Shown here one piece after another: positions 1,160 through 27,330 of a stretch of DNA of 35,066 nucleotides (within the stretch, counting starts at the first letter, position 1; each line of letters opens with the position of its first letter). Location: positions 3,217,804 through 3,252,869 of the forward strand of contig NC_057753.1 in assembly GCF_004010195.1 (NCBI RefSeq), given 5' to 3'. The translations under genes were made by a program, and so were the position numbers. Below the pieces are notes generated by a model. The model did no database searches. It had not been told where the DNA came from and saw only the letters and a list, made by a program, of their open reading frames with translations. Source of the DNA: Chiloscyllium plagiosum. Its lineage: Eukaryota.

Positions 1160-1282
1160 CCCAAAAGACCTGCAGATGCTGTAAATCAGAAACAAGAACA
1201 ACACTTGCGGGGAAAGCTCAGCAGGTGGCGCAGCATCTGTGAAGGGAAACCACGAGTTAACGTTTCAGGTCCGTTGACCCTT
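1160..1282 (-). mobile_element. PLE terminal-repeat fragment (family C); hammerhead core truncated at a CR1 tail
   Basis: Reverse complement reads aagggtcaacggacctgaaacgttaactc...gatgctgc...cctgctgagc, homologous to 1743-1805. The CUGANGA box is replaced by the CR1 tail starting at 1283. Confidence 0.7.
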
Positions 1283-1662
1283 AGAGTCATAGAGATGTAC
1301 AGCATGGAAACAGACCCTTTGGTCCAACCTGTCTATACCAACTGCAGCACCCGGCCCATATCCCTACAAACCTTTCCTATTCATATATCCATCCAAATGT
1401 CTCTTAAATGCAACTGAACCAGCCTCCACCACTTCCTCTGGCAGCTCATTCCATACACTTACCACCCTCTGCGTGGAAAAAGTTGCCCCTTCGGTCTCTT
1501 TTATATCTTTCCCCTCTCACCCTAAACCTATGCCCTCTAGTTCTGGACTCCACAACCCCAGGGAAAAGACTTTGCCTATTTACCCTAGCCATGCCCCTCA
1601 TGATTTTGTAAACCTCTATAAGGTCACCCCTCAGCCTCCGACGCTCCAGGGAAAACAGCCCT
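1283..1662 (-). mobile_element. CR1 LINE 3' end
   Basis: agagtcatagag is the reverse-complement tail. ccctctcaccctaaacctatgccctctag and gattttgtaaacctctataaggtcacccctcagcctc are the reverse of the CR1 ORF2 C-terminus. Confidence 0.9.
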
Positions 1663-1858
1663 ATGAAAGCTGCCGCATTGTCACAGAAACCAAAACAGCG
1701 GTTGCTGCAAAAAGCTCAGCAGGTCTTCCTCTGTTCTGAGGAAGGGTCACCGGGCCCGAAATGTTAACTCTGGTCTCTCTTCACCGATGCTGCCTGACCT
1801 GCTGTGTTTTCCCAGCAAGCGCTGGTTTGGTTTCTGTAAACATGCGGCAGCTTTCATG
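1663..1858. mobile_element. PLE-derived fold-back element (family C)
   Basis: Inverted arms atgaaagctgccgca...cagaaaccaaa.cagcg.ttgctg and cagcaagcgctggtttggtttctg...tgcggcagctttcat, with a hammerhead motif inside. Confidence 0.75.
1733..1768 (+). ncRNA. minimal type I hammerhead ribozyme motif (family C)
   Basis: gtt-CTGAGGA-A-GGGTC-accg-GGCCC-GAAA-tgtt-aac. Stem I is gtt/aac, stem II is 5 bp, and the helix-III palindrome ACGT has decayed to ATGT. Confidence 0.7.
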
Positions 1859-1904
1859 GCTCCTTCTGCCTCGGGTGACCGGATTCATTAAACGCAATGT
1901 TATC

Positions 1905-1922
1905 GCCTTTGTGTTTTTGTAG
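1905..1922 (+). promoter_or_regulatory. probable splice acceptor upstream of the first ZNF coding exon
   Basis: Polypyrimidine tract cctttgtgtttttgtAG (1921-1922), with an alternative ...tcacAG at 1959. An in-frame TGA at 1982 precedes the ATG at 2000, so upstream exons would be non-coding. Confidence 0.5.
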
Positions 1923-1999
1923 GGTCTTTCACGCCTCCTGTTTTAATTCCACGTCACAGGGAGGTTTTGCAGTCGGGAAACTGACACCAAACGTCACCT

Positions 2000-3307
2000 A
2001 TGGATCTGACAGAGACGCCTGATTTATCACCATCCGAGCACCACCCGTTGCTGAACACGGAAGAAGATCTTTCTGTTCACAGCGGCGACGAGCTGTACAT
2101 CTGTTCTGAGTGTGGACTGAGCTTCCCCCAGTCATCTGGCCTGTCACAGCATAACTGCAGTCTGATCGAGGACAAGCCACCTGACCAGGAAAACCATCAG
2201 CACAGTCAGTCTGGGGGGAGGCCATTCACCTGCACAGTGTGTGGGAAGGGATTCACTCGGCCATCCCATCTGCAGGCTCACTGGCGGGTTCACACTGAGG
2301 AGAGGCCTTTCAATTGCCTGGACTGTGGGAAATGCTTTAAAAGTTCCGCGGAGCTGATGCGCCATAGGCGCGTTCACACTGGGGAGAGACCGTTCAGGTG
2401 CTCGCACTGTGGGATTGGCTTCAGGCAATCCTCTCACCTCATTAAGCACAAGAGAGTTCACACTGGGGAGAAGCCGTTCACCTGCTCCGTGTGCGGGAAG
2501 GGGTTCAGTCACTCGTTCAATCTGCTGACCCACCAGCGAGTTCACACCGGGGAGAGGCCGTTTTCCTGCTTGAAGTGTGGTGAGGTATTCACGCAGTCCT
2601 CCAGCCTGATAAGACACCAGCAAACTCACAGCAGGGCGAGGCCATTCACCTGCTCCAAGTGTGGGAAGGGATTTGCTCAGTTATCCAGTGTGCTCAAGCA
2701 CCAGCAAGTTCACACTCGGGAGAAATCCTTCACCTGCTCCGAGTGTGGGAAGGGATTCACTTGGTTGTCCAACCTGTTGAAACACCAGCCGGTTCATGCT
2801 CGGGGCACTTCACTTACCTGCTCCAAGTGTGGGAAGGGGTTCAATCGGGCGAGCTCCCTGCTGTTACACCAGCGAGTGCACACCGGGGAGAGGGCGTTCG
2901 CCTGCGCCTTGTGTGGGAAGGGATTCACTCGGCCGTCCCATCTCCAAGCTCACCTGCGGGTTCACACTGAGGAGAGACCGTTTGAATGCCAGGACTGTGG
3001 GACATGCTTCAAAAGTTCCGGGGAACTGATGCGCCACCGGCGTGTTCACACCGACGAGAGGCCCTTCAAGTGCCCTCACTGTGGACTTGGGTTCAGGCAA
3101 TCCTCTCACCTCGCTAAACACCAGAGCGTTCACACCGGGGAGAAGCCATTCACCTGCTCCGTGTGTGGGAAGGGGTTCACTCGATCGTGCAATCTGCTGA
3201 GGCACCAGCGAGTTCACACCGGGGAGAGACCTTTTACCTGCTCCAAATGTGGCAAGAGTTTCACTCAGTCATCCAGTGTGATGAGACACCAGCGAGTGCA
3301 CCAGTAA
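2000..3307 (+). CDS. tandem C2H2 zinc-finger protein (13 canonical fingers plus 1 degenerate N-terminal finger), no effector domain visible
   Basis: 435-aa intact ORF with CxxC-12x-HxxxH repeats and TGERP/TGEKP linkers. ATTAAA at ~3441 is a possible poly(A) signal. Confidence 0.93.
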
Positions 3308-3529
3308 CTGCATCGATGCGATTTTGTTGTTACTCACACCCGGGATTGAACAATGCTTATATTGACAGCTGGGTTTTGTTTCAGTTGATGTTAGTAATTC
3401 CTGTAACTTGTCTGGGGTTCAATATTCTTGAATTCGCTTAATTAAATCAGCCTTCTGTTTGACATGGTAATGAGTGATGATCTCTTCCTCATGTTCCATA
3501 TTTGGCTGATTTCCTCCTCTGTTAATGCA

Positions 3530-3890
3530 AGTTTGCATTTATATAGCACCTTTCACTATAGGAAATTTTTTGGGGGTTTTCCAGCCAATGAGGTTCTTCT
3601 GAAGTGTTTTGATTTTTCTAGTATAGAAAATGCAGTGGCGAAATTGAGCACAGTAAGTTCCCACAAATGCAAACGCGGTTATGGCCAATTAGTCTATTTA
3701 ATGTTTATTGTGAGATATGTATTCACGAGGGAGAACCCCCCCCCCCGCCACTCCTCAGAAGAACAACACAGGAGAGGATGGATGGGGCAACTGTTGAAAG
3801 TTTCACCTGAAAGTCAATTACACCTGACAATGTAGTGCTTCCTCATTGCTAGTCTGAATATGATCCTGTATTTCGGACATGGGTTCAATC
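3530..3890 (-). mobile_element. old Deu-SINE (SacSINE1-like)
   Basis: ttgcatttatatagcacctttcac is the reverse of an L2-type tail. ccaatgaggttcttctgaagtg...aaattgagcacagtaagttcccacaaa resembles the Deu central domain. Recognised from memory and highly diverged. Confidence 0.55.
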
Positions 3891-4200
3891 TCACGCAGAC
3901 ACAAGGAGAACGTGCAAATCTCTAAACTGAAGGCAAATTGTCAGATCTCAGATCTTCGGTCATACCCATTACCAACTGTGAGATGTTGGTCCAGGAGTCA
4001 CAGATTACCCAAGAACTGAGTTGAAGTCACAGGTAATTGTAAAGTAATTTATTTGAAAGCATCAGGTTTGATTTGAGTCATAGGCAGGTAAGGCCCCCAC
4101 ACGTGAGAACAGTTGATCTGGGTGTGACAGGAGGAATGTGCTACTCATCAAACCCCACTCCACTCCCTACACCGTGATTTATTTTATTTTCCTTTTTTTT

Positions 4201-4547
4201 ATAGGATCCAAACAATGTGCGAACAAGCCATTAGGCCCAACACGTCCACACCAACCCTCCGAACAGCAACCCGCCCAGATTCCCCTACCCTATTATTTTA
4301 GGTGCAGTAGCCAAAGGTGGTCTAACCGTTACATCCCTGAACTACTATGGGCAATGTAGCATGGCCAATCCCACCTAACCTGCACACCTTTGGACTGTCG
4401 GTGGAGACCGGAGCACCTGGAGGAAACTCACTCAGACAGGGGGCGAATGTGCAAACTGAACACTGACAGTTTCCTGAGGATGGAATCAAATGCAGGTCCC
4501 TGGAGCTGGGAGGCAGCAGTGATAACCACTGATCCACCATAACGCCC
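4201..4547 (-). mobile_element. HE1-type (V-SINE) tRNA-derived SINE
   Basis: Reverse of the tRNA-like head (ggcagcagtgataaccactga), the V domain (ccggagcacctggaggaaact...gaatgtgcaaact) and a CR1-like tail. Confidence 0.85.
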
Positions 4548-4556
4548 ATTAAAAAG

Positions 4557-4697
4557 CAGCACACTCGGACCCGCCTCCCTACCCTATCCCTGTAACCCTG
4601 CATTTCCCATGGCTTGTCCAGCTAGCCTGCACATCTCTGGAATTGAACCCTGTTCCCTGTTGCTGTGAGGCAGCAGTGTTAGCCACTGTGCTGACCT
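4557..4697 (-). mobile_element. internally deleted HE1-type SINE
   Basis: ctgcacatct...gaattgaaccctg...ctgtgaggcagcagtgttagccactg; the V domain is missing. Confidence 0.7.
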
Positions 4698-4932
4698 AAT
4701 TGTTTCTCCCCCCCCCCATCGCATGTTGTTATTTAAAATATGTTTTATTATTTTTATATGTAGTGAGACAGGAAAAAAAACCCCATTGTGAACAGGCTTT
4801 ATTTTATATATACTGTTTCCCCCCCAGCACGAATACACCTATGTTGGTTATATATACACACACTGCCAAGCAAAGCCTGGTCAAAACAAAAAGAGGGGTT
4901 TGAAAACAGGGAGAGAGGGTGAAGACTAAATC

Positions 4933-5032
4933 AAAATGACACAACACCAGGTTATAGTCCAAACAGGTTTATTTCGAAGTACAGGTTTTCGAGATTAACC
5001 TGTTGGACTATAACCTGGTGTTGTGAGATTTT
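4933..5032. mobile_element. short PLE-derived fold-back (family B terminal repeat)
   Basis: Inverted arms cacaacaccaggttatagtcca(a)acagg and cctgttggactataacctggtgttgtg. The same sequence follows the family-B hammerheads at 13280 and 23403. Confidence 0.75.
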
Positions 5033-5119
5033 TTTAAAAAAACTCTGCCCATGTGGGGTTTATGAGGGAAACAAAACTCTCTTCCCCCCTCCCCAGGGGA
5101 CGCCCATCCTCCATGTAGT

Positions 5120-5700
5120 TCCAATCAGCAAGGTGATCCATTCATTCAGTGTCAGCCACGCCTCCTCCTCCATTCCGATTGGTTGGAGCACCAGCAGCCT
5201 CGCCTCCTCCTCCACTCCGATTGGTTGGAGGACCAACCGCGCGCGCTCGGTCTTCCAGACCCCGCCCCCTCATTCACCCCAATTGGTTGGAGGACCAGCC
5301 GCGCGCGCTCGGACCTCCAGTCCCGCCCCTAACTCATTCATTGGTTGGACTGTCAGCCGCACCCGCTCGGCCTCCCAGTCTTGCCTCCTCATGCACTTCG
5401 GGAACCAGCCGCGCGCGCTCGGTCCTCCCTTTACCCCCCCCCCCCCCGCCTCCTTCACTCCGATTGGTTGGAGGACCAGCCGCGCGCATTGGGTCTTTCA
5501 GTCCCGCCCCCTCATTCACCCCGATTGGTCGGAGGGCCAGTCGCGGTCGCTCGGTCCTCCAGCGGCAGTCCCCACATCCGATTGGTTCAGCGATGCCGTC
5601 AATTCACTCGGCGTCTTTGCCTTTCCGGGAAAGAGCTGGTGGGAGAGTGGATGTCTATCAACGTCATCAGTGTGCGCCCAACAACAGGAAGTGGCAGTCA
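5120..5700 (+). promoter_or_regulatory. CpG-island promoter built from a ~60-bp tandem repeat of CCAAT box plus GC box
   Basis: ATTGG at 5178, 5220, 5282, 5340, 5463, 5488, 5524 and 5581, CCAAT at 5121. CCCGCCCC occurs in several units, then acgtca (CRE-like, 5661) and caggaagt (ETS-like, ~5685). High CpG content in an otherwise CpG-depleted window, directly upstream of the second ZNF. Confidence 0.8.
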
Positions 5701-6302
5701 GCTGCAGACAAGGGGAGGCTGAGAAGGAGTGGGGATGGATTTGGGTTTGAGCCCAGGGAGGAGAGAGAATACTGTATGTGGGACCTGGATTTACAGATTT
5801 GAGGGAACCAGAGCAGAAAGATGTTCCCAGGCCATTGCCTGAGCTGAATGTCTATCCTGGACTGGTCACTGCAACAGCCTGTTCTGTTTTTAAACAGTTT
5901 TTCAATGGGGAGTAGCTAAGGATGAGATGCTCAAAAGCAATGTTACAAGGTCTGCCTGAGTCGCTTGATCCATCAGGACCTGAGTGCGCAAGGAAAAAGG
6001 AAATGTTTGTTCAGTTCCGGGGGCAATATTTTGAAAGCATCGTTGTGACTAGGAGAAACACAGAGTGGAACGCGCACCAGCTATCCTGAGGAAAACTTCA
6101 GAAGGATGGCTCGATTAGTCTTTCAACCCGATACGAAGGTCGGACATCTGAGACACCAACACCGTAGTGAGGGTATTTTAGTGAATTGACTGCGGAAAGT
6201 GCTTTCGCCGAGTTTTACGGCCGGAAAATAACAGCCTCGTTTTAAGGACTGTATGCGTGTGGTGTGCGTTGACAAACTCTGGAGAGGTGTAAGAGCAGCT
6301 GA

Positions 6303-7481
6303 ATGATGGAGAAACCATGTAAATGTGGGGACTGTGGGAAGGGATTCAATTATCCATCACAGCTGGACATTCATCGACGCAGTCACACTGGAGAGAGGCC
6401 GTTCACCTGCACTCAGTGTGGGAAGAGATTTGCTTACTCATCCAGCCTCTATTTACACCAGAGGGTACACACTCGCAAGAGGCTGTTCACCAACCTTGAT
6501 TGTCAGGAACAATTTGAAGCTACGCCAAACCTCTCAACTGACCAGGTTCATTCTGATCAGAGACCTTTTAAATGTTCTGACTGTGAGAAGAGCTTCAAAA
6601 GTAAATGGGAGCTGCTAAGACACAAACGCACCCACACGGGGGTGAGACCTTATATCTGCTCCATTTGTGGAAAAGGATTCACTCAGTCATCCTACCTTCT
6701 GACACATCAACTTGTTCACACTGACCAGAGACCTTTCCCGTGTTCTGACTGTGGAAAGTGTTTTAAAAGTAAAAATGATTTACAAGTCCATCAACGCATT
6801 CACACTGGGGAGCGGCCATTCACTTGCTCCCTGTGTGAGCGGCGGTTCAGGCGTTTAGCCCAACTGCAGACACACCAAAGAGTTCACACTGATAAGAGAC
6901 CTTTTAAGTGTTCTGTCTGTGAGAAGAGCTTCAAAAGCAAACAGGATCTGTTGACACACCAGCGAGTTCACACTGGGGAGAGGCCATTTACCTGTTCTGT
7001 GTGTGGAAAGAGATTCACCCGTTCATCCCACCGTCTGAGACACCAGCGAGCTCACACTGGGGAGAGGCCATTTACCTGCTACGTGTGTGGGAAGGGATTT
7101 ACTGATTCACCTCAGCTTCTATTACACCAACGAATTCACACTGGAGAGAAACCGTTCACTTGCTCCACATGTGGAAAGGGTTTCACTCAGCCGTCGCAGC
7201 TCACTGAGCACCAGCACGTTCACACTGACCAGAGACCTTTCAAATGTTCTGACTGTGGCAAGAGCTTTAAAAGCAAAAAGTACCTGATGACGCACCAGCG
7301 AGTTCACACTGGAGAGAGACCATTCACCTGCCTCGTGTGTGGGAAGAGGTTCACTCAGTCATCCCATCTGTTGACCCACCAGCAGCTTCACACTGGGGAG
7401 ATGCCGTTCACTTGCCCGCGATGTGGGAAGAGGTTCGCTCGGTCATCCAATCTGCTGAGACACCAGAGAGTTCATAAGTGA
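6303..7481 (+). CDS. tandem C2H2 zinc-finger protein (13 canonical fingers plus 1 degenerate), no effector domain visible
   Basis: 392-aa intact ORF starting [28 protein letters not shown], with TGERP/TDQRP linkers. The third unit ([10 protein letters not shown]...DQVH) has lost zinc ligands. Confidence 0.93.
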
Positions 7482-7897
7482 TTTCAGGAGTCAGAGTTTA
7501 CTGTTTCTTCTGCCGTTAATCACATCCTGGCCTGAATCATGTTCATTTTGATAGTAGGGGTCTTGGCTACTGTTAATATTCCTGTGTTAACACTTAATAG
7601 GCTCGATAGCAATCAAATGAATCTTAAAGGGAGAAACTATTTGACCTTTAGTCTGAGTGTTCCTGAAATGCAGAACAGGCTCAGAAGGGCTGAATGGACT
7701 GATAACGACAGGCCATTCTGCTATAACGTGACGGTTGTCTTCCTGTGCAACCTTGCACTATCGGAAATCGCGCTACAGGAGGCAGCGTAGAGATCACGTT
7801 ATGGAAAATCTAGTATACCGGTTCAGCAGAAAGGTCACACCATACAAACAACGGTCACAATTCATCAATCGCATTCTTGCCAATTCACGATGAAACG

Positions 7898-8240
7898 AGC
7901 AGCACGGTGGCCTAGTGGTTAGCACTGCTGCCTCACAGTGCCAGGGACCCAAGTTCGATCCCAGCCTCAGGGCAGCTGTCTGTGTGGAGTTTGCACATTC
8001 TCCCCCCGTCTGCTTGGATTTCCTCCGAGTGCTCCGGTTTCCTCCCACAATCCAAAGATGTGCAGGTCAGGGTGAACTGGCCAGGTTAAATTGCCCACAG
8101 TGTTCATGGATGTGTAGATGTGGCACATTGCTCTACATTTAACCCTGACCAATGGGGAATGGGTTTGGGTGAGACTCTCTTCAGAGGGTCGGTATGGATT
8201 TGTTGGGCTGAAGGGCCTGTTTCCACACTGTTGGGATCCT
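7898..8240 (+). mobile_element. HE1-type (V-SINE) SINE
   Basis: A box tggcctagtgg, B box gttcgatcc, V domain tgtgtggagtttgcacattctcccc...ctccggtttcctcccaca, tail gaagggcctgtttccacactg. Confidence 0.9.
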
Positions 8241-8739
8241 ATGGAAAAACTGCCTGGAGTTGTTATCTACTTTCTCCGGAGACTTCTTCCAATGTCAAAC
8301 GTTGCTCAAGAATGGTTTCCTATTGCTGTATCTTGTCCCCCGCCAGCTCCTCCAAGCCCTTCTGTTCCTCAGCTAGGTTGGGGCCAAGTTTATTTTGAGT
8401 ACAGAACAGGAAGAGGCCATTGAGTCCCTCCGAGTTGTTCTGTCATTGATTGAGGACCACTGACTTGTGACCCAACTCCCATTCACCCAGATGTTTTATT
8501 GCCTTTCCCATTCTGTTCTGATCTGATCGAAATGGACTTGAAACATCACCCCTTCGGTTAGGGAAAAGGTGTCCCAAGATACATCTCACAACCAGAAACT
8601 TACCAATCAGACAAAACTTCATGCTGAGCCAAAGGAGATTTGGGAGGGCTGAGCAAAGTTTGATTTGCAAATATCAGCTTTTCGGAAGATGTGGGCTGGC
8701 AGGGAGAGAAGTTCCCCTTTTTTCTCAAACGTGAAAAGC

Positions 8740-11382: not shown

Positions 11383-11466
11383 TGGAGGTACTGGTGTTTG
11401 ACTGGGATGGACAAAGTTTAAAAATAACACAACACCAGGTTATAGTCCAACAGGTTTATTTGGAAG
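11383..11466 (-). mobile_element. family B PLE terminal repeat (left arm of fold-back paired with 13158-13400)
   Basis: tggaggtactggtgtttgactgggatggac...cacaacaccaggttatagtccaacagg is the inverted copy of 13320-13395. Confidence 0.7.
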
Positions 11467-11910: not shown

Positions 11911-12095
11911 GGAGAAAGTGAGGTCTGCAGATGCTGGAGATCAGAACTGAAAATGTGTTGCTGGAAAAGCGCAGCAGGTCAGGCAGCATCCAAGGAACAG
12001 GAGAATTCCTGAAGAAGGGCTTATGCCCGAAACGTCGATTCCCCTGTTCCTTGGATGCTGCCTGACCTGCTGCGCTTTTCCAGCAACACATTTTC
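11911..12095. mobile_element. young PLE-derived fold-back (family A) with 15-bp TSD
   Basis: TSD ACCCCTTTATTTATA (11896-11910 and 12096-12110). Inverted arms of ~59 bp with one mismatch; the loop is a hammerhead. Confidence 0.88.
12007..12038 (+). ncRNA. intact minimal type I hammerhead ribozyme motif (family A)
   Basis: tc-CTGAAGA-A-GGGC-ttat-GCCC-GAAACGTC-ga. All core nucleotides present, GUC triplet, ACGU palindrome. Confidence 0.85.
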
Positions 12096-13157: not shown

Positions 13158-13400
13158 ACTGCATATTGAAAACGACCAGGATTGTTATATATAACTTATA
13201 CAACATATCATTTCAGTTGCATCACACTGTAAACTCTGCTATAAATTCCGTGTCTTACAATTGTGTGCTCCACAACCACCTGATGAAGGAGCAGCGCTCC
13301 GAAAGCTAGTGCTTCAAAATGAACCTGTTGGATTCCAACCTGGAGTTGTGTGATTTTTATGTTCGTCCACCCCAGTCAAATACTGGCTCCTCCAAAACAT
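13158..13400 (+). mobile_element. family B PLE terminal repeat with hammerhead
   Basis: Homologous to 23330-23483 and contains the hammerhead at 13277. Confidence 0.75.
13277..13311 (+). ncRNA. intact minimal type I hammerhead ribozyme motif (family B)
   Basis: cac-CTGATGA-A-GGAGC-agc-GCTCC-GAAAGCTA-gtg. Stem I is cac/gtg, AGCU palindrome, CUA triplet. Confidence 0.85.
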
Positions 13401-13762
13401 GAGTTATAAGCTTCAAGCAATATACAAACATGAGTGTACCAGATACTCCAGCCCTTTAATTTCTCCCTGTCCAACTAGTGGACGTTCTTAAGTATCCCAA
13501 TGCAATTTTCTATGTAACTACTATTCATCTTCCTGATCTTCTGACAATTTCCTGTGGGTTGAGTTCTCTCCTGATCATTTAAAGTCAGTTTCTCTCTGGA
13601 CTATGAGTCATGACCTTGCTGGTCTCACAGTGCTGTCTCATTAGCCACTTCACGTCTGGCTGTTTCATAAGGAGCTGTACGCATTTGCGACCCGCTTTTC
13701 AGAGTGGGTTCGCCGTTAATTTACAAGTGATTACTTTCGTTTGTAACACATCATATCCTTCT

Positions 13763-14277
13763 CGCGGAGCGCTTTAGGGAACATCTCCGAGACACCCGCA
13801 CCAATCAACCCCACCGCCCCGTGGCCCAACAATTCAACTCCCCCTCCCACTCTGCCGAGGACATGCAGGTCCTGGGCCTCCTCCACCGCCGCTCCCTCAC
13901 CACCAGACATCTGGGGAAGAACGCCTCATCTTCCGCCTCGGAACACTTCAACCCCAGGGCATCAATGTGGACTTCACCAGTTTCCTCATTTCCCCTCCCC
14001 CCACCTTACCCAAGCTTCAGCCTTCCAGCACAGCACCACCATCATGACCAATTTTCCTTCATACCTATCTACTCCACTCTCTTCTCTGACCTATTACCTT
14101 CACCCCCACCCCCATCTTGGCTACCTTCTCCCCAGCCCCACCCCTTCCCATTTATCTCTCCACCCCGGAGGCTGTCTGCTTTCATTCCTGATGAAGGGCT
14201 TTTGCTTGAAACGTTGATTTTCCTGCTCCTCGGATGCTGCCTGACCTGCTGTGCTTTTCCAGCACCACTCTAATCGA
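13763..14277 (+). mobile_element. Penelope-like (Neptune-type) 3' fragment: GIY-YIG C-terminus and terminal repeat with hammerhead (core at 14188)
   Basis: ERFREHLRD...RPVAQQFNSPSHSAEDMQVLGLLH, the same family as 25480-27330, followed by ctgatgaagggcttttgcttgaaacgttga. Confidence 0.88.
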
Positions 14278-14519: not shown

Positions 14520-14985
14520 AACAACAAATGCTGGAGATCACAGTGAGGTTAGACAGCATCCATGGAGAGAGAGCAAGCTGACGTTTCCAGTCTGGACAAT
14601 GCTTCATCAGAGATGAAGTGTGGAGGGGGGCAACATTGATGGTATAGTTTGGGGATGTGTGGGGGTAGTGGGTTTAGGGTGCTGGTGGAGGAACGATGTT
14701 GATAATTCAGGTTAAGTGATCGGAACGTGAGAATGTGAACTTGTTTTCTCCAGCAGCACTCGACACGCGCCCCCTCCCCCAAAACTATAGCATTAATTCT
14801 GCCTACCCCACATTTCACTTTAGCTCTGATGAAGTGCCATTTAGACTCGCCAACTTGCTCTCTGTCTCTGTCTCTCTCTCTCTCTCTCTCACACACACTT
14901 CTCTCTCCCCCCACAGATGCTGTCTGACCCACTAATATCGCCAGCATTGTTGTTTCCAGGGCTGATTCCAGCGTCTGCAGTAATT
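14520..14985. mobile_element. PLE-derived fold-back (family D) with two degenerate hammerheads and a (TC)n(AC)n tract
   Basis: Inverted arms acaaatgctgg...agacagcatc and gatgctgtct...ccagcattgttgt. Minus-strand ctgatgaagcattgtccagactggaaacgtcagct (14580-14610) and plus-strand agctctgatgaagtgccatttagactcg (core 14826). Confidence 0.7.
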
Positions 14986-15779: not shown

Positions 15780-16255
15780 GTAGTATCTGGATGTAGGATT
15801 GCTTGCTGAGCTGGAAGGCTCATTTTGCGATGTTTCATCATCACATCATCAGTGAGCTTCTGGATGAAGCACTGGTGGTATAGGCTGCTTTCTGTTTTGG
15901 TTTCCTTGGGTTGGCGACGGCATTTCCTCTGGTGACATCATTTCCAGTGGTGATGTCATTTGATGCTCTTTTTCTCAGGGGGTGGTGACTGGGATGCAAG
16001 TCAATGTGTTTGTTGATAGAGCTCCTGGGAATTCTTGTGCGTGTCTCTGTTTGGCTTGTCCTAGGATGGATGTGTTGTCCCAGTCGAAGTGGTGTCCTTC
16101 CTCATCTGTATGTGAGGATATTAGTGAGACAGGGTCATGTTGTTTTGTGGCTAGTTGATGTTCATGTATCCTGGTGGATAGCTTTCTGCCTGTTTGTCCA
16201 ATGTAGTGTTTGTTACAGTTCCTTGCACGGTATTTTATAAACTCAGTCGTATCAC
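15780..16255 (-). mobile_element. Penelope-like (Poseidon-type) 3' fragment with GIY-YIG endonuclease
   Basis: Minus ORF NCNKHYIGQTGRKLSTRIHEHQ...HTDEEGHHFDWDNTSIL. Collapsed hammerhead remnant ctgatga-t...gaaacatc at 15829-15852. Confidence 0.85.
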
Positions 16256-16319: not shown

Positions 16320-18230
16320 GAAAGTTAGTGGAATGTCTAAGAGGTGGATTTTTGGAGCAGCTTGTGTTGGAGCCCACTAGGGAACAGGTAAGATTGTATT
16401 AGGGAGCTTGATCAGGGAGCTTAAGGTGAAGGAAGTCTAAAGTGTGGTGCTGGAACAGCACGACCAGTCAGGGAGTATCCGAAGAGCATGAGAATCAAAG
16501 TTTCGGGCATAAGCCCTTCATCAGGACGTGGCTGAAGAGCTTCAGGGCAGAGGAGATGACCTGGGGGGGGGAGGGAGTGCAGTGAGAGGGGGACTCATTG
16601 AACTCCATGTAGAGAGAAGAGAAGAACTTCTTCAACGTAGGCATCCTTGGAAGAGGCTTCACAGTGAGGTTATAATCAACCCGGAGAAAGTGCAGGCTGC
16701 AGATGCTGGAGATAGAGTCGACAGTCAGAGATCAGAGTCGCTTATGCCCGAAATGTCGACTCTCCTGCTCCTCGGATGCCGCCTGACCTGCTGTGCTTTT
16801 CCAGCACCATACTCTTGACCCTGATCTCATTTCTTCCTCCTTCAAATGAAGGAACCCTTCGGGGGCAGTGACCATCATATGATTGAATTTACTCTGCAAG
16901 TTGAGAGGGTGAAGGTGGAGTCAGATGTAGCAGTGTTACACTTGAATAAAGGCAACTGCAGCGGCATGAGAGGAGAGCTGATCTGAATTGACTGGGAGAG
17001 GAACCCAGCAGGAAAGATAATGGAACAGCAATGGCAGAACTTTCTGGGAGTGATTCGAGAGACACGGCAGAGATTCATCCCGAAGAAAAAGAAGCGTGGT
17101 ACAGGGAGGATGAGGGAACCCTGGCTGACCAGGGAAATCAGGGATAGCATAACAGCAAAAGAGAAAGCATATAATGTGGCCAAGGGCAGTGGGAAACCAG
17201 ACGATTGGGAAGCTTACAAAGACCAACAGAGGGCAATAAGATTGAAATAAGGAAGGAGAAGTTTGAATATGAGGGTGAGCTAGCTGGTAATATTAAGAAA
17301 GACTGCAAGAGTTTCTTTAAATATATAAAGGGCAAAGAAAGGTCAAAGTGGGCATTGGGCGCTGGAAAATGAGACTGGAGAAGTAGAAATGGGGAACAAT
17401 GAAATGGCTGAGGAGCTGAATAAGTACATTGCCTCAGTCTTCGCTGTGGAAGACACAAGTGATATCTCGAAAAATTCAAGAGAGTCGGGGACAGAAATGA
17501 GAATGGTGCCCATCCCTGAGGAGAAGGGGCTGGGAAAAACGGGAAGGTCTGAAGGTGGATAAACTGCCTGGACCAGATGGACTATAACCTAGAGTTCTGA
17601 AAGAGATAGTGGAGGTTTTAGTCGTGATCTTTTCAGTATCACAGGAATCAAGGACGGCCCCAGAGGACTGGTCAGACCACATTCAGAGTATTGTGAGCAA
17701 GTTTGGGCCCCATACCTCAGAAAGGATGTATTGGCCCTGGAGCGGGGTCCAGAGGCTGTTCACAAGAATAATGCCAGGAATGAAAGGCTTAACATATGAG
17801 GAACATTTGAGGACTCTGGGACTATACTTGATGGGATTTAGAAGTTTTGAAGGGGATCTAATTGAAACATACAGAATACTGCATGGTCTGGACACAGTGG
17901 ATGTTGGGAAAATGTTCCTATAGGTAGGAGAGACTAGGACCTCAGGGCACAGAGTGAAGGGAAGATATTTTAGAACAGAGAGAAGGAAAGACTTCTTTAG
18001 CCAGAGAGTGAGGAATCTGTGGGATTCACTGCCACACAAGGTTGTGGAACCCAGGTCATTGAGTATATTTAAAACAGAGACAGATGAGTTCTTGATTGTC
18101 AAGGGGATCAAAGATACGGGGAGAAAGCAGGATAATGAGATTGAAAAGTCTGTCAGCCATGATTGAATGGTGGAGGCAGACTCGATGGGCTGAATGGCCT
18201 AATTTCTTCTCCTAGGTCTTATGGTCTTTA
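16320..18230 (+). mobile_element. internally deleted CR1 (endonuclease end to 3' tail), interrupted at 16435-16846
   Basis: ggcagtgaccat (GSDH), EPWLTREIRD, PGPDG motif, FFSQRVRNLWDSLP, tail tcttatggtctt. Confidence 0.88.
16435..16846. mobile_element. compound family A PLE insertion (permuted minus-strand unit plus inverted arm)
   Basis: Flanked by TGAAGGAA (16427-16434 and 16847-16854). Minus-strand hammerhead at 16497-16524, partial plus-strand hammerhead at 16741. Confidence 0.8.
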
Positions 18231-19433: not shown

Positions 19434-19681
19434 GAGAAAGTGAGGACTGCGGATGCTGGAGATCAGAGTCAAGAGAGTGTGGCACTGGAAATGCAAAGCG
19501 GGTCAGGCAGTATCGAGGCGCAGGAGTATTGACGTTTCAGGCAGAAGCCCTGAATCCTGATGAAGCGCTTACACCCGAAACATCGTCTCTCCTGCTCCTC
19601 AGATGCAGACTGACCTGCTGTGCTTTTCCAGCACCACACTCTCTCGACTCTGATCTCCAGCATCTGCAGTTCTCACTTTCT
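19434..19681. mobile_element. family A PLE fold-back with degenerate hammerhead (core at 19557)
   Basis: Inverted arms of ~120 bp: agaaagtgag.actgc.gatgctggagatcagagtc and gactctgatctccagcatctgcagttctcactttct. Confidence 0.85.
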
Positions 19682-20124
19682 ATAAGGCTCTGGGCAGACT
19701 GCATTTGGAATATTACGAGCAGTTCTGAGCCCCATGTCAGGAAGGATGTGATGGCGTTGGAGGGGATCCAGAAGAGATTTATAAGTATGATCCTGGGAAT
19801 GAAGGGATTGTCGTATGAGGAGCAGGTAAGGACCGTGGGTTTATACTCAATGGAGTTTAGAACGATGAGGGAGGCATCTCATTGAAGCCCACAGAGTGCT
19901 GAGAGGCCTGGATAAAGTGGAGGTGGAGAAAATGTTTCTGCTCGTAGGAGAGACTCAGACCCAAGAGCCCAACCTCAGAGGGTCGGCATGACCCTTTAGA
20001 ACTGAGATGAGGAGGAATATCTTCAGCAAACAAGTGGTGAATCTGTGAAACCCATTTCCACAGTAGTCTGTGGAGGTTAAGCCATTGAGTGTCTATAAGA
20101 CAGAAATAGATGCATCAGGTAACA

Positions 20125-21125
20125 GATGTCCCAACCTAATCTAGTTACACCTGCCAGCACCCGGCCCATATCCCTCTCAACTCTTCCTATTTATAAACCC
20201 ATCTAGATGCCTTACAAATGTTGCAATTGTACCAGCCTCCACCACATCATCTGGGAGCTCATTCCATACAGTTTACAGAATTGTGATCACTATTCCCAAA
20301 GTAATCTCCTACTGAAACTTAAACCACCTGGCCAGGCTCATTCCCCAACACCAGGTCCAGTATGGCCCCTTCCCAAATTGGATGATTTACGCACTGCTCT
20401 CGAAAACCCTCCTGGATGCTCCTTACAAATTCTGCTCCATCCGGACCTCTAACACTAAGTGAATCCCTATCAATGTTGGCAAACTTAAAATCTCCAACCA
20501 CCACCACCCTGTTGCTCCTACATCCTTCCATAATCTGTTTACATATTTGTATGGAGGGAGCAAGTGAGTATTGCAAAAGTGTGGTGCTGGAAAAGTTGGG
20601 CAGCATCTGAGGAGTAGGAGGGTCGATGTCTCGAGCGTAAATTATTCATCAGGAAAGGTCTACCTTGATCTCACATTTCGCTGGTGTTGGCCTGTAGTAT
20701 TGCCCCAATATTGTTACTGCACCCTTCCTATTTCTGAGCTCCACCCATATAGCCTCACTGCTCGAGTCGTCCATCATGCCCTCCGGCAGCACAGCTGTGA
20801 TATCCTCTCTGACCAGTAATGCAACTCCTCCACCTCTTTTACCTCCCTCTCTATCCTGCCTAAAACATCTATACCCTGGGATGTTTAGTTGCTAATCTTG
20901 CCCTTCCCTCAAACAAGTCTGAGCCATAGCAATAACGTCATACTCCCAAGTACTAATCCAAGCCCTATGTTCACTTGCCTTACCTACTACACTTCTCGCA
21001 TTAAAACAAATTCATCTCAGACAACCAGCCCCTTTGTGTTCATCATCTGCTATTCTTCCCGTTAGTCACACTGACCTCATTATCTAGTTCCTTACAGGCT
21101 TTAGTTACTACCTCTTTACTATCCA
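20125..21125 (-). mobile_element. CR1 fragments (tail piece plus endonuclease region) with a family A PLE scrap at ~20575-20655
   Basis: RVVVVGDFKFANID...GAILDLVLGNEPG on the minus strand. The PLE scrap gtggtgctggaaaag...ttcatcagga carries a degenerate minus-strand hammerhead. Confidence 0.8.
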
Positions 21126-21134
21126 CAAAACAAT

Positions 21135-21415
21135 GGGGCAGTGTGGTGGCTCAGTGGTTAGCACTGCTGCCTCACAGCACCAGGGACCCAGCCTCGATTC
21201 TGGTGTGGAGTTTGCACATTCTCCTCGTGTCAGTGTGGGTTTGCTGTGGTTTCCTCCCACAATCCAACGATGTGGTGATTAAGTGAATTGGCTGTGCTAA
21301 ATTGTGTGCAAAGTTTAGGGATGTGTAGGGTAGGTGCATTTGTCAGGGGGAATAGGTCTGGGTCGGTGTGGACTTGTTGGGCCGAAGGGCCTGTTTCCAC
21401 ACTGCAGGTAATCTA
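21135..21415 (+). mobile_element. HE1-type SINE
   Basis: tggctcagtggttagcactgctgcctcacag head, V domain and tail. Confidence 0.88.
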
Positions 21416-21816
21416 CGATTTGATGAAAACACAATTTATTTAAACACTATAATTAAAGTTCAAACAGAAGAAAAAGGAATTTAGAATAACTTAACCAAGA
21501 GAAAAGTTAACCGAATAATAGCTACAATACCTATTACTAGTTAACTGTTTCAATGTAGTAACATTCTCTAAGTTCACCCCTTGGCAAAAAGGCAAATTCA
21601 GACACAGATTCTTACTGAGAGTTGTAGAGTCCCACAGCATGAAGACAGGCTCTTTGGCCTAAACTGGTCTGGGCTGACCAAAATGTCCATCAACACTAAC
21701 CTGCACTCAGCCCATATCCTTCTAAACCTTTCCTATCCATGTATTTGTCCAAATGCCTTTTAAATGTTGTTATTGTACCCACTTCAACCACATCCGCTGG
21801 CAGCTCATTCCATATG

Positions 21817-23483
21817 CGATGTATTGAACAAATTTCGGTTGCTGTTAGGTCTTAATCACTTAGAATGGATTGCAGGTTTTGATTCATTAATATGTCGACC
21901 CCAGAACTTTGTTCAAGTCACATTCTCGAGATAACTTAAGGTTTTATAAAATAAATGGTGACATCTCAGCTCAGACAATGCATTAAAGGTGTGAGGTTAG
22001 AGTCTGGCTGTATTCCAACCTTGAGTTAGACTGGTTCTATTTCCAAAGTAGGAATTTATAAAATGTCACATGGACCGATCGCCTACAGATTGTGTGCTTT
22101 TTGAACAAAATAAAATGTATCTGCAAAACAAATCTTCAAATGCACATTCACTCCATAGACTTATATGTGTATGTGCATGAGGGAGCGAGAGTGAGTGAGA
22201 GAGTGTATGTGTGTGTGTGTAGGAGAGAGGTTTTGTGTGTGTGTGTGTTTGATAGAGTGTCTGCACAATTGTGATGGAATATATGCATGTGAGAGGGTGT
22301 GCGCGTGAGTGTGAGTGTACCTGTGTGTGTGAGAGCATGTATATGAGAGAGGGTCTGAATAAGTGCATGAGTGTGATTTTGTGTGTGTGTGTGAGTGTAC
22401 ATTGTAGTGGGGTCACCTGCAGTGTGACATGAACCTAAGGTCCCAGTTGAGGCCATCCTCATGGCTAAGCAAACTTGGTTTTCAGCCTCTTCTTGGCCAC
22501 TATGCGTTGTTGTGTATCCCAAAGTCTGCCTTGGAGGATGGTCACCCAAAGATACAAGGCCAAATGTCCTTGACTGCTGTCTGTGTTGTAGGTCGACTTG
22601 AGTCGATTTGTGATCCATACTCCTTTCGGAGTCTTTCAGTGACATTCGGCCTTAGATATGTGGGTGATCATCCTCCAAGGTGGACTTGGGGATATGCAGA
22701 GTGGCCGAGCAGAGGCTGATAGCAATATTCGGTACCCATGGGGCTGGCCTCAACCGGACCTTGGGCTGATGTCACACTACAGGTGACCGCACTACACTAT
22801 ACACTCTCTCACATACACAGGTAAACATACACACACAAGCATACTCTTGTACACAATCACACTCACACACTCTTTCAGACCACCTCTCATACACATGCTC
22901 TCTCAGACAGATAGAGAGACACATGCAGACACACACACACTCTTTCACGCTCTCTCACTCCTTCACATGCACAAGCGCAACACATATAAGTCTATGGGTT
23001 GAATTTGCATTTGCAGATTTATATTTCCAGATACATTCTATTTTGTTCAAAAAGCGGACAATCTGCAGGCAGTTAATACAAGCAGTCAATCCGTGCAACA
23101 TTTTATAAATTCCTACTTTGGAAATAGAACCAGTCTGACTCAAGACTGGGATTCAGAAAGACTCTAACCTCACACCTTTAATGCATTATCTGAGCTGTTA
23201 CGTTACTTTCTAAAATAAAACCTTAAGTTTCCTCAAGAATGCGACTTGAAACGACTTCTAGGATTTACGTATTTACGAATCGAAACATGCAAGTCATTCT
23301 AAGTGATTAAGATTTAACAGCAATCTAGGTTTGTTCAATACATCGTATATTTTGATCTTTTACTCTAAATTCTGTGTCCTATGATCCTGCCCCATGAACG
23401 ACCGAATGAAGGAGTAGTGCTTTGAAAGCTAGTGCTTCCTAATGAACCTGTTGGTCTATAACCTGGTGTTGTGTGATTTTTTT
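21817..23483. mobile_element. large family B PLE inverted pair (GIY-YIG C-terminus plus long 3' region), with (TG)n/(CA)n tracts
   Basis: 21817-22580 is the reverse complement of ~22645-23347. Both arms encode a decayed ...ILQG.L...EQRLIA.FGTH..GLN.DLG.MSHY terminus. Degenerate family-B hammerhead at 23403-23434. Confidence 0.8.
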
Positions 23484-23592
23484 AGAACTATAAAAGCAGA
23501 TGGTCCGGTGAGACAGGGGAATTAATTAAAGCAAAGAAGAAAATGATGTTTGAGCTAAACAGGTATTTTGCACCTGTCTTCAGTGTAGAATG

Positions 23593-23686
23593 TCCTGATG
23601 AAGGGCTTTTGCCCGAAACGTTGATTTTCCTGCTCCTCAGATGCTGCCTGACCTGCTGTGCTTTTCCAGCACCACTCTGATCTAGA
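23593..23686 (+). mobile_element. 94-bp family A PLE mini-insertion beginning at an intact hammerhead (core 23595-23622)
   Basis: 15-bp TSD CTTCA(G/C)TGTAGAATG (23578-23592 and 23687-23701). tc-CTGATGA-A-GGGC-tttt-GCCC-GAAACGTT-ga. Confidence 0.88.
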
Positions 23687-23934
23687 CTTCACTGTAGAAT
23701 GAACAAAAGGAAGCCCTTCAAAATCAAACGAATTAAAATAATTCAGAAACAATTGTAATCACTGGAGACAATATACTGGGGGAAAGTACTAGAACTACAT
23801 GTTGACAAGTCCTCTGTCACTACAGGATAGAAATCCAGCACAGATAATTCTAATTGTGGCAAACATAATTTCCACTGTCAAACTAGAAATGCTGACCACA
23901 TAGTCTCCAATTTACTGGTATACTTTTTTTTAAA

Positions 23935-24243
23935 TTTAAGTTCCTTACAGTGTGGAAACAGGCCCTTTGGCCCAGCCAGTCCACACCGACCCTCTGAAGA
24001 GTAACCCACCCAGACCCGTTTCCCTCTGACTAATGCACCCAGCACAATGGGCAATTTAGCAAGGCCAATTCACCTGACCTGCACATCTTTGGGACTGTGG
24101 GAGGAAACCGGAGCACCCCGAGGAAACCCACGCAGACACGGGGAGAATGTGCAAACTCCACACAGCCGCCCGAGATTGGAACCGAACCTGGGACCCTGCT
24201 GCTATAAGGCAGCAGTGCTAACCACTGAGCTACCGTGCTGCCC
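23935..24243 (-). mobile_element. HE1-type SINE
   Basis: Head, V domain and tail on the minus strand. Confidence 0.9.
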
Positions 24244-24379
24244 ATAAAACACTCCTTCCCCTGGATTTCAGCCTAATTTTCCTCCCCAGAAGGACGTGAA
24301 TCTTTGGTCCCATTTCACAGTCACCTACTGTCCTCCACAATATATCACCCAGTCTTTGGAGATCGTTATCAACAACGAA

Positions 24380-24745
24380 AACAAACAAACAAAAAAAAAA
24401 AACAGAAATTGATGGAGAAACTCTGTGTTCTGAACAAAGGTCACTGGACCTAAGTTGTTAATTCTGATTTCTCCCCAAAGATGCTGCCAGAGCTGCTGAG
24501 TTTGTCCAGAAATTTCTGTTTTTGCTTTTTGTTTCTAATTTCCTGCACCCACAATTCTTTGGGGTTTTTTTTGGTGCAAATCTTTCTATCAGAAATCGTA
24601 ACTCGAATTGACTAAAGGGGTCTGACAATCAATTCCAGTGACTACACACAGAGGAAGCTGAAAGAAAAACTCAGCAGCTCTGGTAGCATCTATTGAGAGA
24701 AAAGCAGAGTTAATGTTTCAAAGACAACGTGACTATTCTTCAGCA
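24380..24745. mobile_element. old PLE terminal-repeat remnants with degenerate hammerheads (+ at 24430, - at ~24709-24743)
   Basis: gttctgaacaaaggtcactggacct (family C) and rc ctgaagaatagtcac...gaaacattaac. Inverted arms aacagaaatt and aatttctgtt. Confidence 0.6.
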
Positions 24746-24812
24746 CCACTTGCAGGGACATTGTTCAATGTTTGGATCGTTGTGCACATTACCCTCTAGC
24801 ATTCCCAACACA

Positions 24813-25368
24813 GAGTCATAGAGATATACAGCACAGAAACAGACCCTTTGGCCAACTCGTCCATGCTGACCATATATCTAACCTAATCTAGTCCTATTTG
24901 CCAGCATTTGGCTCATATCTCATTAAACCCTTCATATTCATATATCCTTCAAGATGCCTTTGAAATGTTGTAATTGTACCAGCCTCCACCATTTCCTTTG
25001 GCAACTCATTCCTTACACGCACCACCCTCTGTGTGAAAAAGGTGCTCCTTCAGCCCTTTTAAACCTCTTCTCCTCTCATCTAAAACCTATGCCCATTAGC
25101 TCTGGACTCCCCCAACCCAGGGAAAAGACATTCTCTATTTATCCTATCTCTGCCCCTCATGATTTTATAAACCTCTATAAGGTCACCCCTCAGCCTCCGA
25201 TGCTCCAGGGAAAACAGCCCTACTCTACTCAACCTCTCCCTTTAACTCAAATCTTCCAACCCTGGCAACATCCTTGTAAATTTTTTCAACCCTTTCAAGT
25301 TTCACAACATCCTTCTGATAGGAGGGAGAACAGAATTGCATGCAATGTTCCAACAGTGGCCTAACTAA
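24813..25368 (-). mobile_element. CR1 3' fragment
   Basis: agagtcatagag tail; the same reverse C-terminal sequence as 1283-1662 and 12794-13157. Confidence 0.9.
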
Positions 25369-25479
25369 TCTTCTTATCTCTTGGCTAAAGTGGTCTCACA
25401 GCAATTCCAGTGACTACCCACACATACACAGAGGAAGAATCTCTGTTGAGAGAGGAATAGAGTTAACATTTCAAACTTC

Positions 25480-27330
25480 GAGGAGAAAGTGAGTACTGCA
25501 GTTGCTGGATATCAGAATTGAAGAGTGTGGTGCTAGAAAAGCACAGCCATTTAGGCAGCATCCCAGGAGCTGGAGAGTCGACGTTTCAGGCATAAGCCCT
25601 TCATCAGGAATGAGGCTTGTGGGCCAAGGGGGCTGAGTTATAAATGGGAGGGGACAGGGCTGGGGGGAAGGTAGCTGAGAATGTAATGGGTAGATGAAGG
25701 TCGGGGTGAAGGTGATAGGTCAGAGAGGAGGGTGGAGTGGATAGATGGGAAGGAAGATGGACGAGTTGGACAGGTCAAGAGGGCAGTGCCGAGTTGGAAG
25801 AGTGGGATCTTGGGCGGTGGGGAAATGGGGAACCTGGTGAAATCCACATTGGTCCCGTGTGGTTGGAGGGTCCCAAGGTGGAAGATGAGGTGTTCTTCCT
25901 CCAGGCATTGGGTGGTTAGGGTCTGGCAATGGAGGAGGCCCAGGACCTGCATGTCCTTTGCGGAGAGGGAGGGGGAGTTAAAGTGTTCAGCCACGGGGCG
26001 GTGGACTTGGTTACTGCAGGTGTCCCGGAGATGTTCTCTGAAACAATCCACAAGTTGGCGTCCTGTCTCCCCAATGTAGAGGCGACTACATCAGGTGCAA
26101 CGGATGCAGTAGATGACATGTGTGGAAGTACAGGTAAATCTCTGATGGATGTGGAATTATCCTTTGGGGCCTCGGACAGAGGTGAGGAGGGAGGTGTAGG
26201 TGCAGGTTTTGCACTTCTTGCGATGGCAGGGCAAGGTGCTGGGAGGGGAGGGTGGGTTGGTTTGGATCATGGACCTCACAAGGGAGTCGTGGAGAGAATG
26301 GTCTCTCTGGAATGCAGATAGGGGTGGGAGAGAAATACCTCCCTAGTGGTGGCATCAATTTATAGGTGGCTGAAATGGCGGAGGATGATGCGGTGTATCT
26401 GGAGGCTGCTGGGGTGGAAGGTGAGGACCAAGGGGGTTCTGTCCTCGTTCCAATTGGAGGGATGGGATTCAAGAGCAGAGGTGTGGGAAGGGGAGGAAAT
26501 CCACTGGAAGGCATTGATGATCATGTGGGAGGGGAAATTACGGTCTTTGAAGAAGGAGGCCATCTGGGATGCTCTACGGTGGAACTGGTCCTCCTGGGAG
26601 CAGATGCAGTGGAGGTGGAAGAATTGGGAATAAGGGATACCATTTTTACAGGATGCAGGGTGGGGGACGTGTAGGCCAGCTAGCTGTGGGAGTCCGTGGG
26701 TTTGTAGGGGATGTCCGTGTTGAGTTGGTCATCGGAAATGGAGATGGAGGGGTCCAGGAAAGGGAGGGGAGTGTCTGAGATGGTCCAGGTGAACTTGAGG
26801 TCAGGGTGGAAAGTGTGTGTGAAGTTGATGAGCTGTTCAACTTCGTAGTGGGAGCACAAGGTAGCGCCAATACAGTCATCAATGTAGAAAGAAAAAGTGG
26901 GGGTGGTGCTGGTGTAGCTGCGGAAGATGGACTGTTCCACATCCCTAATAAAGAGGCAGGCACAGTTGGGGCCCATGCGGGTGCCCGTGGCTACCCCCTT
27001 TGGTCTGGAGGAAGTGGGAGGATTGGAAAGAGAAATTGTTGAGGGTGAGGACCAATTCAACCAGACAGATGAGGGTGTCAGTGGAAGGGTTTTGGTTGGG
27101 GTGGCGTGCGAGGAAGAAACAGAGGGTTTGGAGGCCTTTGTCATGGCAGATAGATGTGTACAGGGACTGGATGTCCATGGTGAAGATAGGGCAATGGGGG
27201 CCGGGGAAACGAAAGCCGTGGAGGAGGTGGAGGGAGTGGGTGGTGTGCTGAATGTCGGTGGGGAGTTCCTGAACTAAGGGGGGGGCAGGGTGGTGTCAAG
27301 GTTGGCAGAGATAAGTTGGGTAGGGCAGGA
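25480..27330 (-). mobile_element. 5'-truncated Penelope-like retroelement (Neptune-type): RT, Cys linker, GIY-YIG and terminal repeat with hammerhead (25580-25607)
   Basis: MDIQSLYTSI, KGVATGTRMGP and YIDD (PLE RT). PCHRKKCKTC linker, HVIYCIRCT*CSRLYIGE, FREHL...VAEHFNS...LGTLQPHG. Frameshifted and with stops. Confidence 0.93.

Follow-up and report, generated by a model that had tools for sequence, protein, structure and literature searches.

What is the origin of the many short hammerhead-like motifs scattered over one stretch of shark DNA, and do they cut RNA? The window examined here, which is the whole 35,066-nucleotide (nt) stretch of Chiloscyllium plagiosum contig NC_057753.1 between forward-strand positions 3,217,804 and 3,252,869, had been described in a sequence-only reading as carrying about 15 minimal hammerhead ribozymes of Penelope-like elements (PLEs). 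The follow-up analysis places type I minimal hammerhead motifs in the 3'-terminal pseudo-long terminal repeat (pseudo-LTR) of five PLE lineages, here termed families A to E, whose source elements likely self-cleave their RNA after position H17; a probability of about 0.85 is assigned to this reading. The motifs are those described by Cervera and de la Pena in 2014 (PMC4209133), a known kind with new members, and the window holds about twenty PLE stubs from the five lineages, each with such a motif.

A minimal hammerhead motif in five families

The bare heptamer CTGANGA is weakly enriched, with 40 matches in the window compared with 26.6 +/- 4.7 expected, a count of 40 being reached by 1 of 100 shuffles. 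The strict descriptor comprised helix I of at least 2 bp, CTGANGA and 0-1 extra base, followed by helix II of at least 4 bp capped by a loop of 3-7 nt, and GAAA, and finally a pairing 15.2/16.2 dinucleotide, T, and then H (non-G). It recovered six window sites (1736+, 12009+, 13280+, 14188+, 23595+ and 25607-), with none in the reversed window and none in 50 window shuffles, so that the full motif is far beyond chance, unlike the heptamer. A looser descriptor also returned 30208(-), which has an 11-nt loop and no family and was set aside as chance.

A covariance model, R1, was built from families A, C and D only, since MAFFT was unable to align family B structurally with the others. R1 detected 13 window sites at E <= 0.05, including 16524-, 14610-, 1282-, 24430+, 19557+ and 20652-, and added two absent from the earlier list, namely 24743- and the partner arm 19531-19551(-), with 14826+ reaching E = 0.35 only. 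Both family B sites and 15852- were missed by this A/C/D model, and the covariation of families B and E was read directly rather than from a model.

The claim of about 15 minimal hammerheads stands as far as descent is concerned, as all 15 listed sites are derived from the motif, and falls short in respect of integrity, as only three (12009, 13280 and 23595) are fully intact. Three more are intact only through G-U wobbles, located at 15.2-16.2 (U-G) in 1736 and at G10.1-U11.1 in 14188 and 25607; the helix III palindrome of 16524 is broken (ACTT), and the remaining eight (19557, 20652, 23403, 24430, 1282, 14610, 14826 and 15852) are broken. The core C3-U4-G5-A6-N7-G8-A9...G12-A13-A14, A15.1, U16.1, H17 is present at seven window sites (the six strict ones and 16524) and in the forms of families A-E, and is lost at the other eight listed sites, with motif decay falling mainly on two CpG sites, C11.1-G12 and C15.2-G16.2. 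The earlier family groupings proved correct, with families D and E legible as hammerheads only via better genome copies, and the cuts predicted after 12036, 13308 and 23622 had been counted properly; a single core start, given as 20653(-), belongs at 20652.

Comparison of the family forms revealed that the unpaired extra base at A9/10.1, which is U in family E and A in the four other families, is needed by all 22 strict matches of the window and of a genome sample described below. Pair 10.1-11.1 is G-C in all five forms, 10.2 is G-C, A-U (D) or U-A (E), 10.3 is G-C, A-U (B) or U-G (E), and 10.4 is C-G (A), G-C (B), U-A (C and D) or A-U (E). Helix I reads UC/GA, CAC/GUG, GUU/AAC, AGCU/AGCU and UCA/UGA in the five families, pair 15.2-16.2 is C-G except for G-C in family B, H17 is never G, and the loopless helix III palindrome, which is able to pair only with a second copy, is ACGT in families A, C, D and E and AGCT in family B. 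The form of family D in genome copies is AGCT CTGATGA A GAGTC ATCTA GACTC GAAA CGTT AGCT, and that of family E, read from 11 relatives, is tca CTGATGA T GTTACC TAGTAT GGTGA(C/T) GAAA CGTC tga. The family C motif at 1731..1770(+) passes the strict descriptor, scores 57.5 bits with R1 and has 14 genome relatives. One family A copy elsewhere in the genome (L099:9039-9076) carries GAGC/GCTC as helix II, a two-sided change at 10.2-11.2 relative to GGGC/GCCC.

Among 95 distinct copies of families A, C and D, pair 10.1-11.1 is G-C in 66, G-U in 18, A-U in 3 and unpaired in 8, and pair 15.2-16.2 is C-G in 44, U-G in 33, U-A in 1 and unpaired in 17. The cells of this alignment are paired in 85.6% of cases, compared with 79.4% after shuffling and 10.7-42.7% with the partners slid; 122 cells are changed on both sides (50.5 shuffled, 8-28 slid), and the covariation score is 0.352 (0.242 shuffled, at most 0.103 slid), none of the three values being reached in 500 shuffles, and all of these pairing figures are biased toward the structure, since the alignment was fitted to it and the copies are related. 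The suggestion that stems covary between families while the core persists is thereby borne out, with compensatory pairs across the five families and counts on the 95 A/C/D copies.

Mean identity among family representatives is 0.609 in the motif (shuffled 0.517), 0.517 upstream (0.513), 0.594 in the first 60 nt of the tail (0.539) and 0.535 in the next 60 nt (0.533). A lack of excess conservation of the core over the flank, which the sequence-only reading had named beforehand as refuting it, was thus not observed (0.609 versus 0.517 upstream). The core is constant across the lineages, and the sequence changes in helices I and II and in the loopless, palindromic helix III preserve pairing.

These results bear on the most sceptical explanation, that a repeat merely happens to hold CTGANGA and GAAA with no ribozyme meaning. 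The near-background frequency of CTGANGA alone and the lack of any Rfam hammerhead match speak for such a coincidence, while the strict descriptor found nothing in every shuffled and reversed control and the same core with compensatory stems recurs in five lineages with unrelated flanks, which makes chance resemblance highly improbable. The hammerhead reading also agrees with the published PLE motifs (PMC4209133), which share the core CUGANGA...GAAA, the single unpaired base at A9/10.1, G10.1-C11.1, the short helix I, a helix III with no loop and a palindromic 15.2-16.2, several consensus families per genome with compensatory changes, and occurrence mostly in solitary truncated elements with some close opposite-strand pairs. 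The published motifs are located in the terminal repeat of an element that codes for reverse transcriptase and GIY-YIG, and of this setting GIY-YIG and junctions of the tail with the 5' region were observed here. The present motifs differ in their far higher copy number, in family sequences specific to the C. plagiosum genome, and in family E, whose extra base is U instead of A and whose helix II has 6 bp. Canonical type I hammerheads (those of newt and Schistosoma satellites; Rfam Hammerhead_1) have the same catalytic core and open helix I, whereas the motifs here have no closed helix III, no loop-loop contacts and no Rfam score.

A block of about 35 nt, GATGCTGCC.GA.CTGCTG.GCTTTTCCAGCA, lies 15 nt past the predicted cut at window positions 12050-12085, 14230-14265 and 23640-23675 and in other A, C and D tails. 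It is common to families A, C and D, not B or E, and a small stem (TGCTG...CAGCA) is possible within it; the block may serve a further function, such as binding of the reverse transcriptase.

Penelope-like context, insertion shape and abundance

A family A copy elsewhere in the genome (L020) carries a reading frame with the Pfam GIY-YIG domain (PF01541, E = 3e-5), which ends about 230 nt before the motif, and the element ends about 130 nt after the motif. GIY-YIG-like remnants occupy the same relative place upstream of the motif in genome copies of families B, C and D. Many of 20 family A genome copies continue upstream, and the repeat thus does not begin with the motif. Pfam on 58 of 169 window open reading frames (ORFs; at least 70 amino acids (aa)) identified no PLE domain; tblastn with locus-derived peptides did find endonuclease remnants in the window upstream of 14188, 25607 and 15852 and near 23403. 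The PLE origin put forward earlier is thus upheld for families A-D and, within the window, for 15852(-). Two genome copies (L007 and L133) have a common element 5' region immediately behind the tail, an arrangement that partial tandems would show. Taken together, the motifs probably represent the 3'-terminal, pseudo-LTR part of five Penelope-like lineages. Poseidon of Anolis carolinensis (PAc; PMC11167929) is likewise a PLE with GIY-YIG, a hammerhead and a defined "tail" where reverse transcription starts; the PAc reading frame begins inside the hammerhead, whereas the motif here lies about 230 nt past the family A stop codon.

The window copies are dead insertions, either 5'-truncated or reduced to stubs of about 100-130 bp, and many are accompanied by an inverted partner. 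Pairs of this inverted, head-to-head kind are frequent and occur in the window at 1736 (where an inverted copy of its own tail lies directly upstream of 1731..1770), 12009, 16524/16740 and 19551/19557, and 12 copies among the first 100 listed CTGAAGA-type pattern matches are paired at distances below 60 bp. For 89 family A tail loci from the sample and the window, the 5' limits, which were taken from local alignments and are imprecise by a few bases, extend 60 nt or more upstream of the motif in 19 loci and fall at -59 to -13 in 9, at -12 to +2 in 28, inside the motif in 27 (18 of them at +14 or less), at the cut site in 1 and in the tail only in 5. Random 5' truncation was dropped as an account of the stubs, because the limits cluster at the 5' edge of the motif.

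This clustering could also signify that the 100-130 bp stubs form a separate non-autonomous family, comparable to retrozymes or short interspersed nuclear elements (SINEs), which borrows the PLE machinery, instead of by-products of PLE insertion. In line with this, 46 of the 89 loci have a 5' limit between -12 and +14 and loci shorter than the motif number only 6, derivatives that lack an ORF occur (L007 and, in the window, the 16524(-) copy), and a preprint (10.64898/2026.07.22.740005) derives animal retrozymes from PLE pseudo-LTRs. The stub sequences, however, closely resemble and run co-linear with the 3' ends of copies that carry an ORF, and inverted 5'-truncated partners are described as a PLE insertion signature in PMC8557442. 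The window is also free of head-to-tail arrays, its same-strand motifs lying 192 bp to 10 kb apart with no period and in different families; animal non-LTR retrozymes differ in this respect, the close pairs here being head to head (no tandem-repeat finder was run). A separate stub family is accordingly judged quite unlikely.

With regard to such derivatives, the 144 nt before 16524(-), at window positions 16530-16664(-), are 76-78% identical to the element 5' region located behind the tail in L133, L004 and L007. In its order of 5' region, hammerhead and tail, the 16524(-) copy resembles a derivative without an ORF. The G preceding TC-CTGATGA is templated in this copy and is therefore not a cap mark there.

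The abundance of the motif was determined in the 3.56 Gb genome by exact patterns, which matched 60,845 times for the CTGAAGA type of family A (30 bases), 22,144 times for its CTGATGA type and 17,799 times for family B, giving 100,788 matches in total and 0 in the reversed controls. A genome sample of 40 arbitrary 10 kb stretches (400,000 bases, of which 29,323 are N and 370,677 non-N) contained 16 strict motifs, with 0 in the reversed sample and 0 in 10 sample shuffles, from which about 150,000 intact motifs are extrapolated genome-wide (Poisson range roughly 90,000-250,000); R1, modelling families A, C and D, marked 48 sample loci by hand count, corresponding to about 460,000 remnants. The window, with six strict motifs in 35 kb, is about four times as dense as the sample. 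The very large motif population that had been anticipated from the window is confirmed.

Published counts of minimal hammerheads are about 4,000 in coelacanth and 9,000 in Xenopus (PMC4209133), and retrozyme counts run up to 14,255 per genome in the preprint cited above. The copy number thus goes beyond the textbook, with at least 100,788 exact-pattern copies versus thousands in coelacanth and Xenopus, and standard RNA-family annotation sees none of these motifs. The main import is a confirmation that PLE hammerheads can be recognised in raw sequence by reading without tools, the kind itself being already established.

Indications for and against cutting

In the proposed mechanism, two copies would pair via the loopless palindrome A-C-G-U (A-G-C-U in family B) and share a helix III, the resulting dimer would cut the element RNA at the bond after H17, and the tail RNA released by this cut would carry a 5'-OH. 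Double-hammerhead cleavage through a weak palindromic helix III goes back to Forster et al. 1988, as cited in PMC4209133, and a review repeats both the dimer idea and the low activity (PMC6765202).

An indirect trace of such a cut is provided by chimeras with U6 RNA. Two of the 30 best U6 loci (L109 and L126) join the U6 3' end, with a 5-T tract, to a family A tail exactly at G1.1. A 20-base junction pattern from L126 has three genome matches and none in the control, raising the number of distinct G1.1 chimera loci to four in all. Ordinary family A insertions start at the cut in only 1 of the 89 tail loci. RtcB is reported to join U6 ends bearing a 2',3'-cyclic phosphate to 5'-OH RNAs (PMC6789731). 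The U6/LINE-1 chimeras of Moldovan et al. 2019 described there are similar in that complete or partial U6 with a terminal 5-U tract is ligated to a retroelement RNA at its 5' end and then copied into DNA; here the partner is a PLE tail and four loci share a single predicted ribozyme bond, not variable truncation points. The U6-tail junctions at G1.1 are suggestive, as an indirect sign of in vivo cutting and no proof, and as DNA records they allow in vivo PLE hammerhead cutting to be tested. This signal is worth a proper census; a search of the available literature yielded no publication on U6-PLE chimeras or shark PLE hammerheads.

About 11 of the 30 best U6 loci (L107, L114, L115, L119, L124 and L127-L132) have U6 joined to the 5' end of a transfer RNA-like SINE (ggtggcacggtggctcagtggttagcac...), so that U6 chimeras are common in the genome and not PLE-specific. 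The U6-tail chimeras were also observed in inverted, head-to-head arrangement, L134 being directly preceded by an inverted tail and L126/L135 by a U6 end with its tail in inverted orientation. In addition, four RNA reads, starting at two places, connect 23663 backwards to 23623, the base directly past the predicted cut, with one extra C between; these reads are too few to interpret, and the junction may reflect a genomic arrangement elsewhere.

A fuller scenario, for which the odds are about even, is that weak loopless hammerheads would cut in the germ line, U6 would be joined at the ribozyme-made 5'-OH and copied into DNA, and the sharp 5' limit of the stubs at the edge of the motif would mark the start of the element RNA. 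If this is true, the genome, with more than 100,000 intact copies, would surpass every functional ribozyme motif population counted so far in an animal.

A number of observations weigh against self-cleavage or against the hammerhead assignment itself. Helix I has only 2-4 bp and helix III only 4 bp, and unconstrained cofolding of two copies gave an extended helix II or other duplexes and no double hammerhead for 4 of 4 motifs. The Rfam hammerhead models yielded 0 matches at gathering scores and none at E <= 10 over the whole window, and no match on the 91 bases around the intact 13280 motif; these models are taken to be Hammerhead_1, Hammerhead_3, Hammerhead_II, HH9 and HH10. Of the four U6-PLE chimeras present in the unbiased set of 30 best U6 loci, two have their junction within the endonuclease coding sequence instead of at the cut. 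The 1,910 single-cell RNA reads, which cover both strands of the tails, showed no pile of starts or ends at 23622/23623 in a poly(A) library that is unsuited to 5'-OH ends, and a reverse transcriptase domain was not seen upstream of the motifs, where many stretches are N. As for earlier work, published minimal hammerheads cleave poorly in vitro (PMC4209133), cleavage of the Anolis PLE needed the protein of the element and was dispensable for insertion in vitro, with no RNA-seq ends at the cut (PMC11167929), and hammerhead-free PLE clades proliferate well, the function of the hammerhead being called unclear (PMC8557442).

Several of these points would fit a motif that is kept for a non-cleavage role, such as a fold recognised by the reverse transcriptase or another protein, or that travels as a passive passenger on PLEs and rarely or never cuts in vivo. 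The low in vitro activity, the dispensable cleavage and lack of RNA-seq ends at the cut in Anolis, the thriving of clades without hammerheads, the absence of read ends at the predicted cut here and the second conserved block just downstream in the A, C and D tails all agree with it. Such a role leaves less room for catalytic-core positions that are all identical in five lineages while the flanks have diverged to background, for an H17 that is never G in the family forms, and for four U6 chimeras located exactly at G1.1 where ordinary insertions begin elsewhere. A non-cleavage role is consequently regarded as unlikely, and self-cleavage of the source elements after H17 is retained as the preferred reading.

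Features and neighbouring sequences of the window

Table 1. Coordinates of hammerhead motifs, their remnants and associated PLE sequences in the window
Feature	Position	Strand	Remarks
Family C copy, 5'-truncated within core	1259..1282	-	Starts at A9/extra A, CTGANG missing; R1 partial, positions 12-35, E = 0.0017
Family C motif	1731..1770	+	gtt CTGAGGA a GGGTC accg GGCCC GAAA TGTT aac; U-G at 15.2-16.2; predicted cut after 1765
Inverted family A tail copy	11956..12006	-	Self-BLAST; hairpin with 12039-12089 around 12009 motif; sub-threshold microRNA (miRNA)-like Rfam match
Family A motif (CTGAAGA subtype), fully intact	12004..12041	+	Predicted cut after 12036
Family B motif, fully intact	13275..13313	+	cac CTGATGA a GGAGC agc GCTCC GAAA GCTA gtg; predicted cut after 13308
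GIY-YIG C-terminal remnant, PLE copy bearing 14188 motif	13758..14011	+	tblastn, L020 peptide: 90% and 87% identity, two pieces
Family A motif	14183..14220	+	Helix II 3' strand GCTT, two G-U wobbles including 10.1-11.1; predicted cut after 14215
Family D copy, helix II decayed	14575..14615	-	R1 34.8 bits
Family D copy, GAAA lost	14821..14856	+	Head to head with 14610(-); R1 E = 0.35
Family E remnant, helix II deleted	15816..15852	-	11 genome relatives
Diverged GIY-YIG remnant upstream of family E remnant	16044..16241	-	tblastn 31% identity over 62 aa, E = 7e-6
Family A motif	16492..16529	-	Core and helix II intact; helix III ACTT, no palindrome
Family A tail, hammerhead 5'-truncated	16740..16809	+	Head-to-head partner of 16524(-)
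Decayed family A pair, head to head	19531..19589	both	19551(-) and 19557(+)
Decayed family A motif	20639..20657	-	Helix II broken, GAGA replacing GAAA; core start 20652
Family B-type GIY-YIG remnants	22416..22783	both	tblastn; upstream of 23403 copy
Family B copy, core broken (CGAATGA)	23400..23434	+	Sequence, self-BLAST
Family A motif (CTGATGA subtype), fully intact	23590..23627	+	Predicted cut after 23622
Decayed family C copy	24425..24464	+	Core CTGAACA, GAAA lost
Decayed family C copy, absent from earlier list	24707..24748	-	R1 E = 0.048; family C tail present
Family A motif	25575..25612	-	G10.1-U11.1 wobble; predicted cut between 25580 and 25579, minus strand
GIY-YIG remnant, PLE copy bearing 25607 motif	25803..26354	-	tblastn: 69.5%/128 aa (L020 peptide), 48.6%/109 aa (family D peptide)

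Rfam output at E <= 10 consisted only of sub-threshold miRNA-like matches on hairpins of inverted PLE tails. Two such hairpins, at 4942-5023 and 11420-11466, are formed by two inverted family B tails with no hammerhead, the former giving a mir-1422-like match of 37.7 bits, below the gathering score of 60. A further near-perfect hairpin at 29588-29674, whose arms measure about 38 bp, bears no relation to the PLE tails and scores 53.6 bits (+) and 49.3 bits (-) against mir-556, for which the gathering score is 84.

Two long open frames at 1985-3304(+) and 6303-7478(+) are packed with C2H2 zinc fingers (Pfam E = 6e-85 and 4e-81, respectively), and the PLE stubs sit around and between the exons of zinc-finger genes. 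Fragments of other elements are located toward the two ends of the window, comprising a LINE-type reverse transcriptase fragment at 32778-33446(+) (RVT_1, E = 6e-21) and an endonuclease fragment at 193-588(-) (Exo_endo_phos_2).

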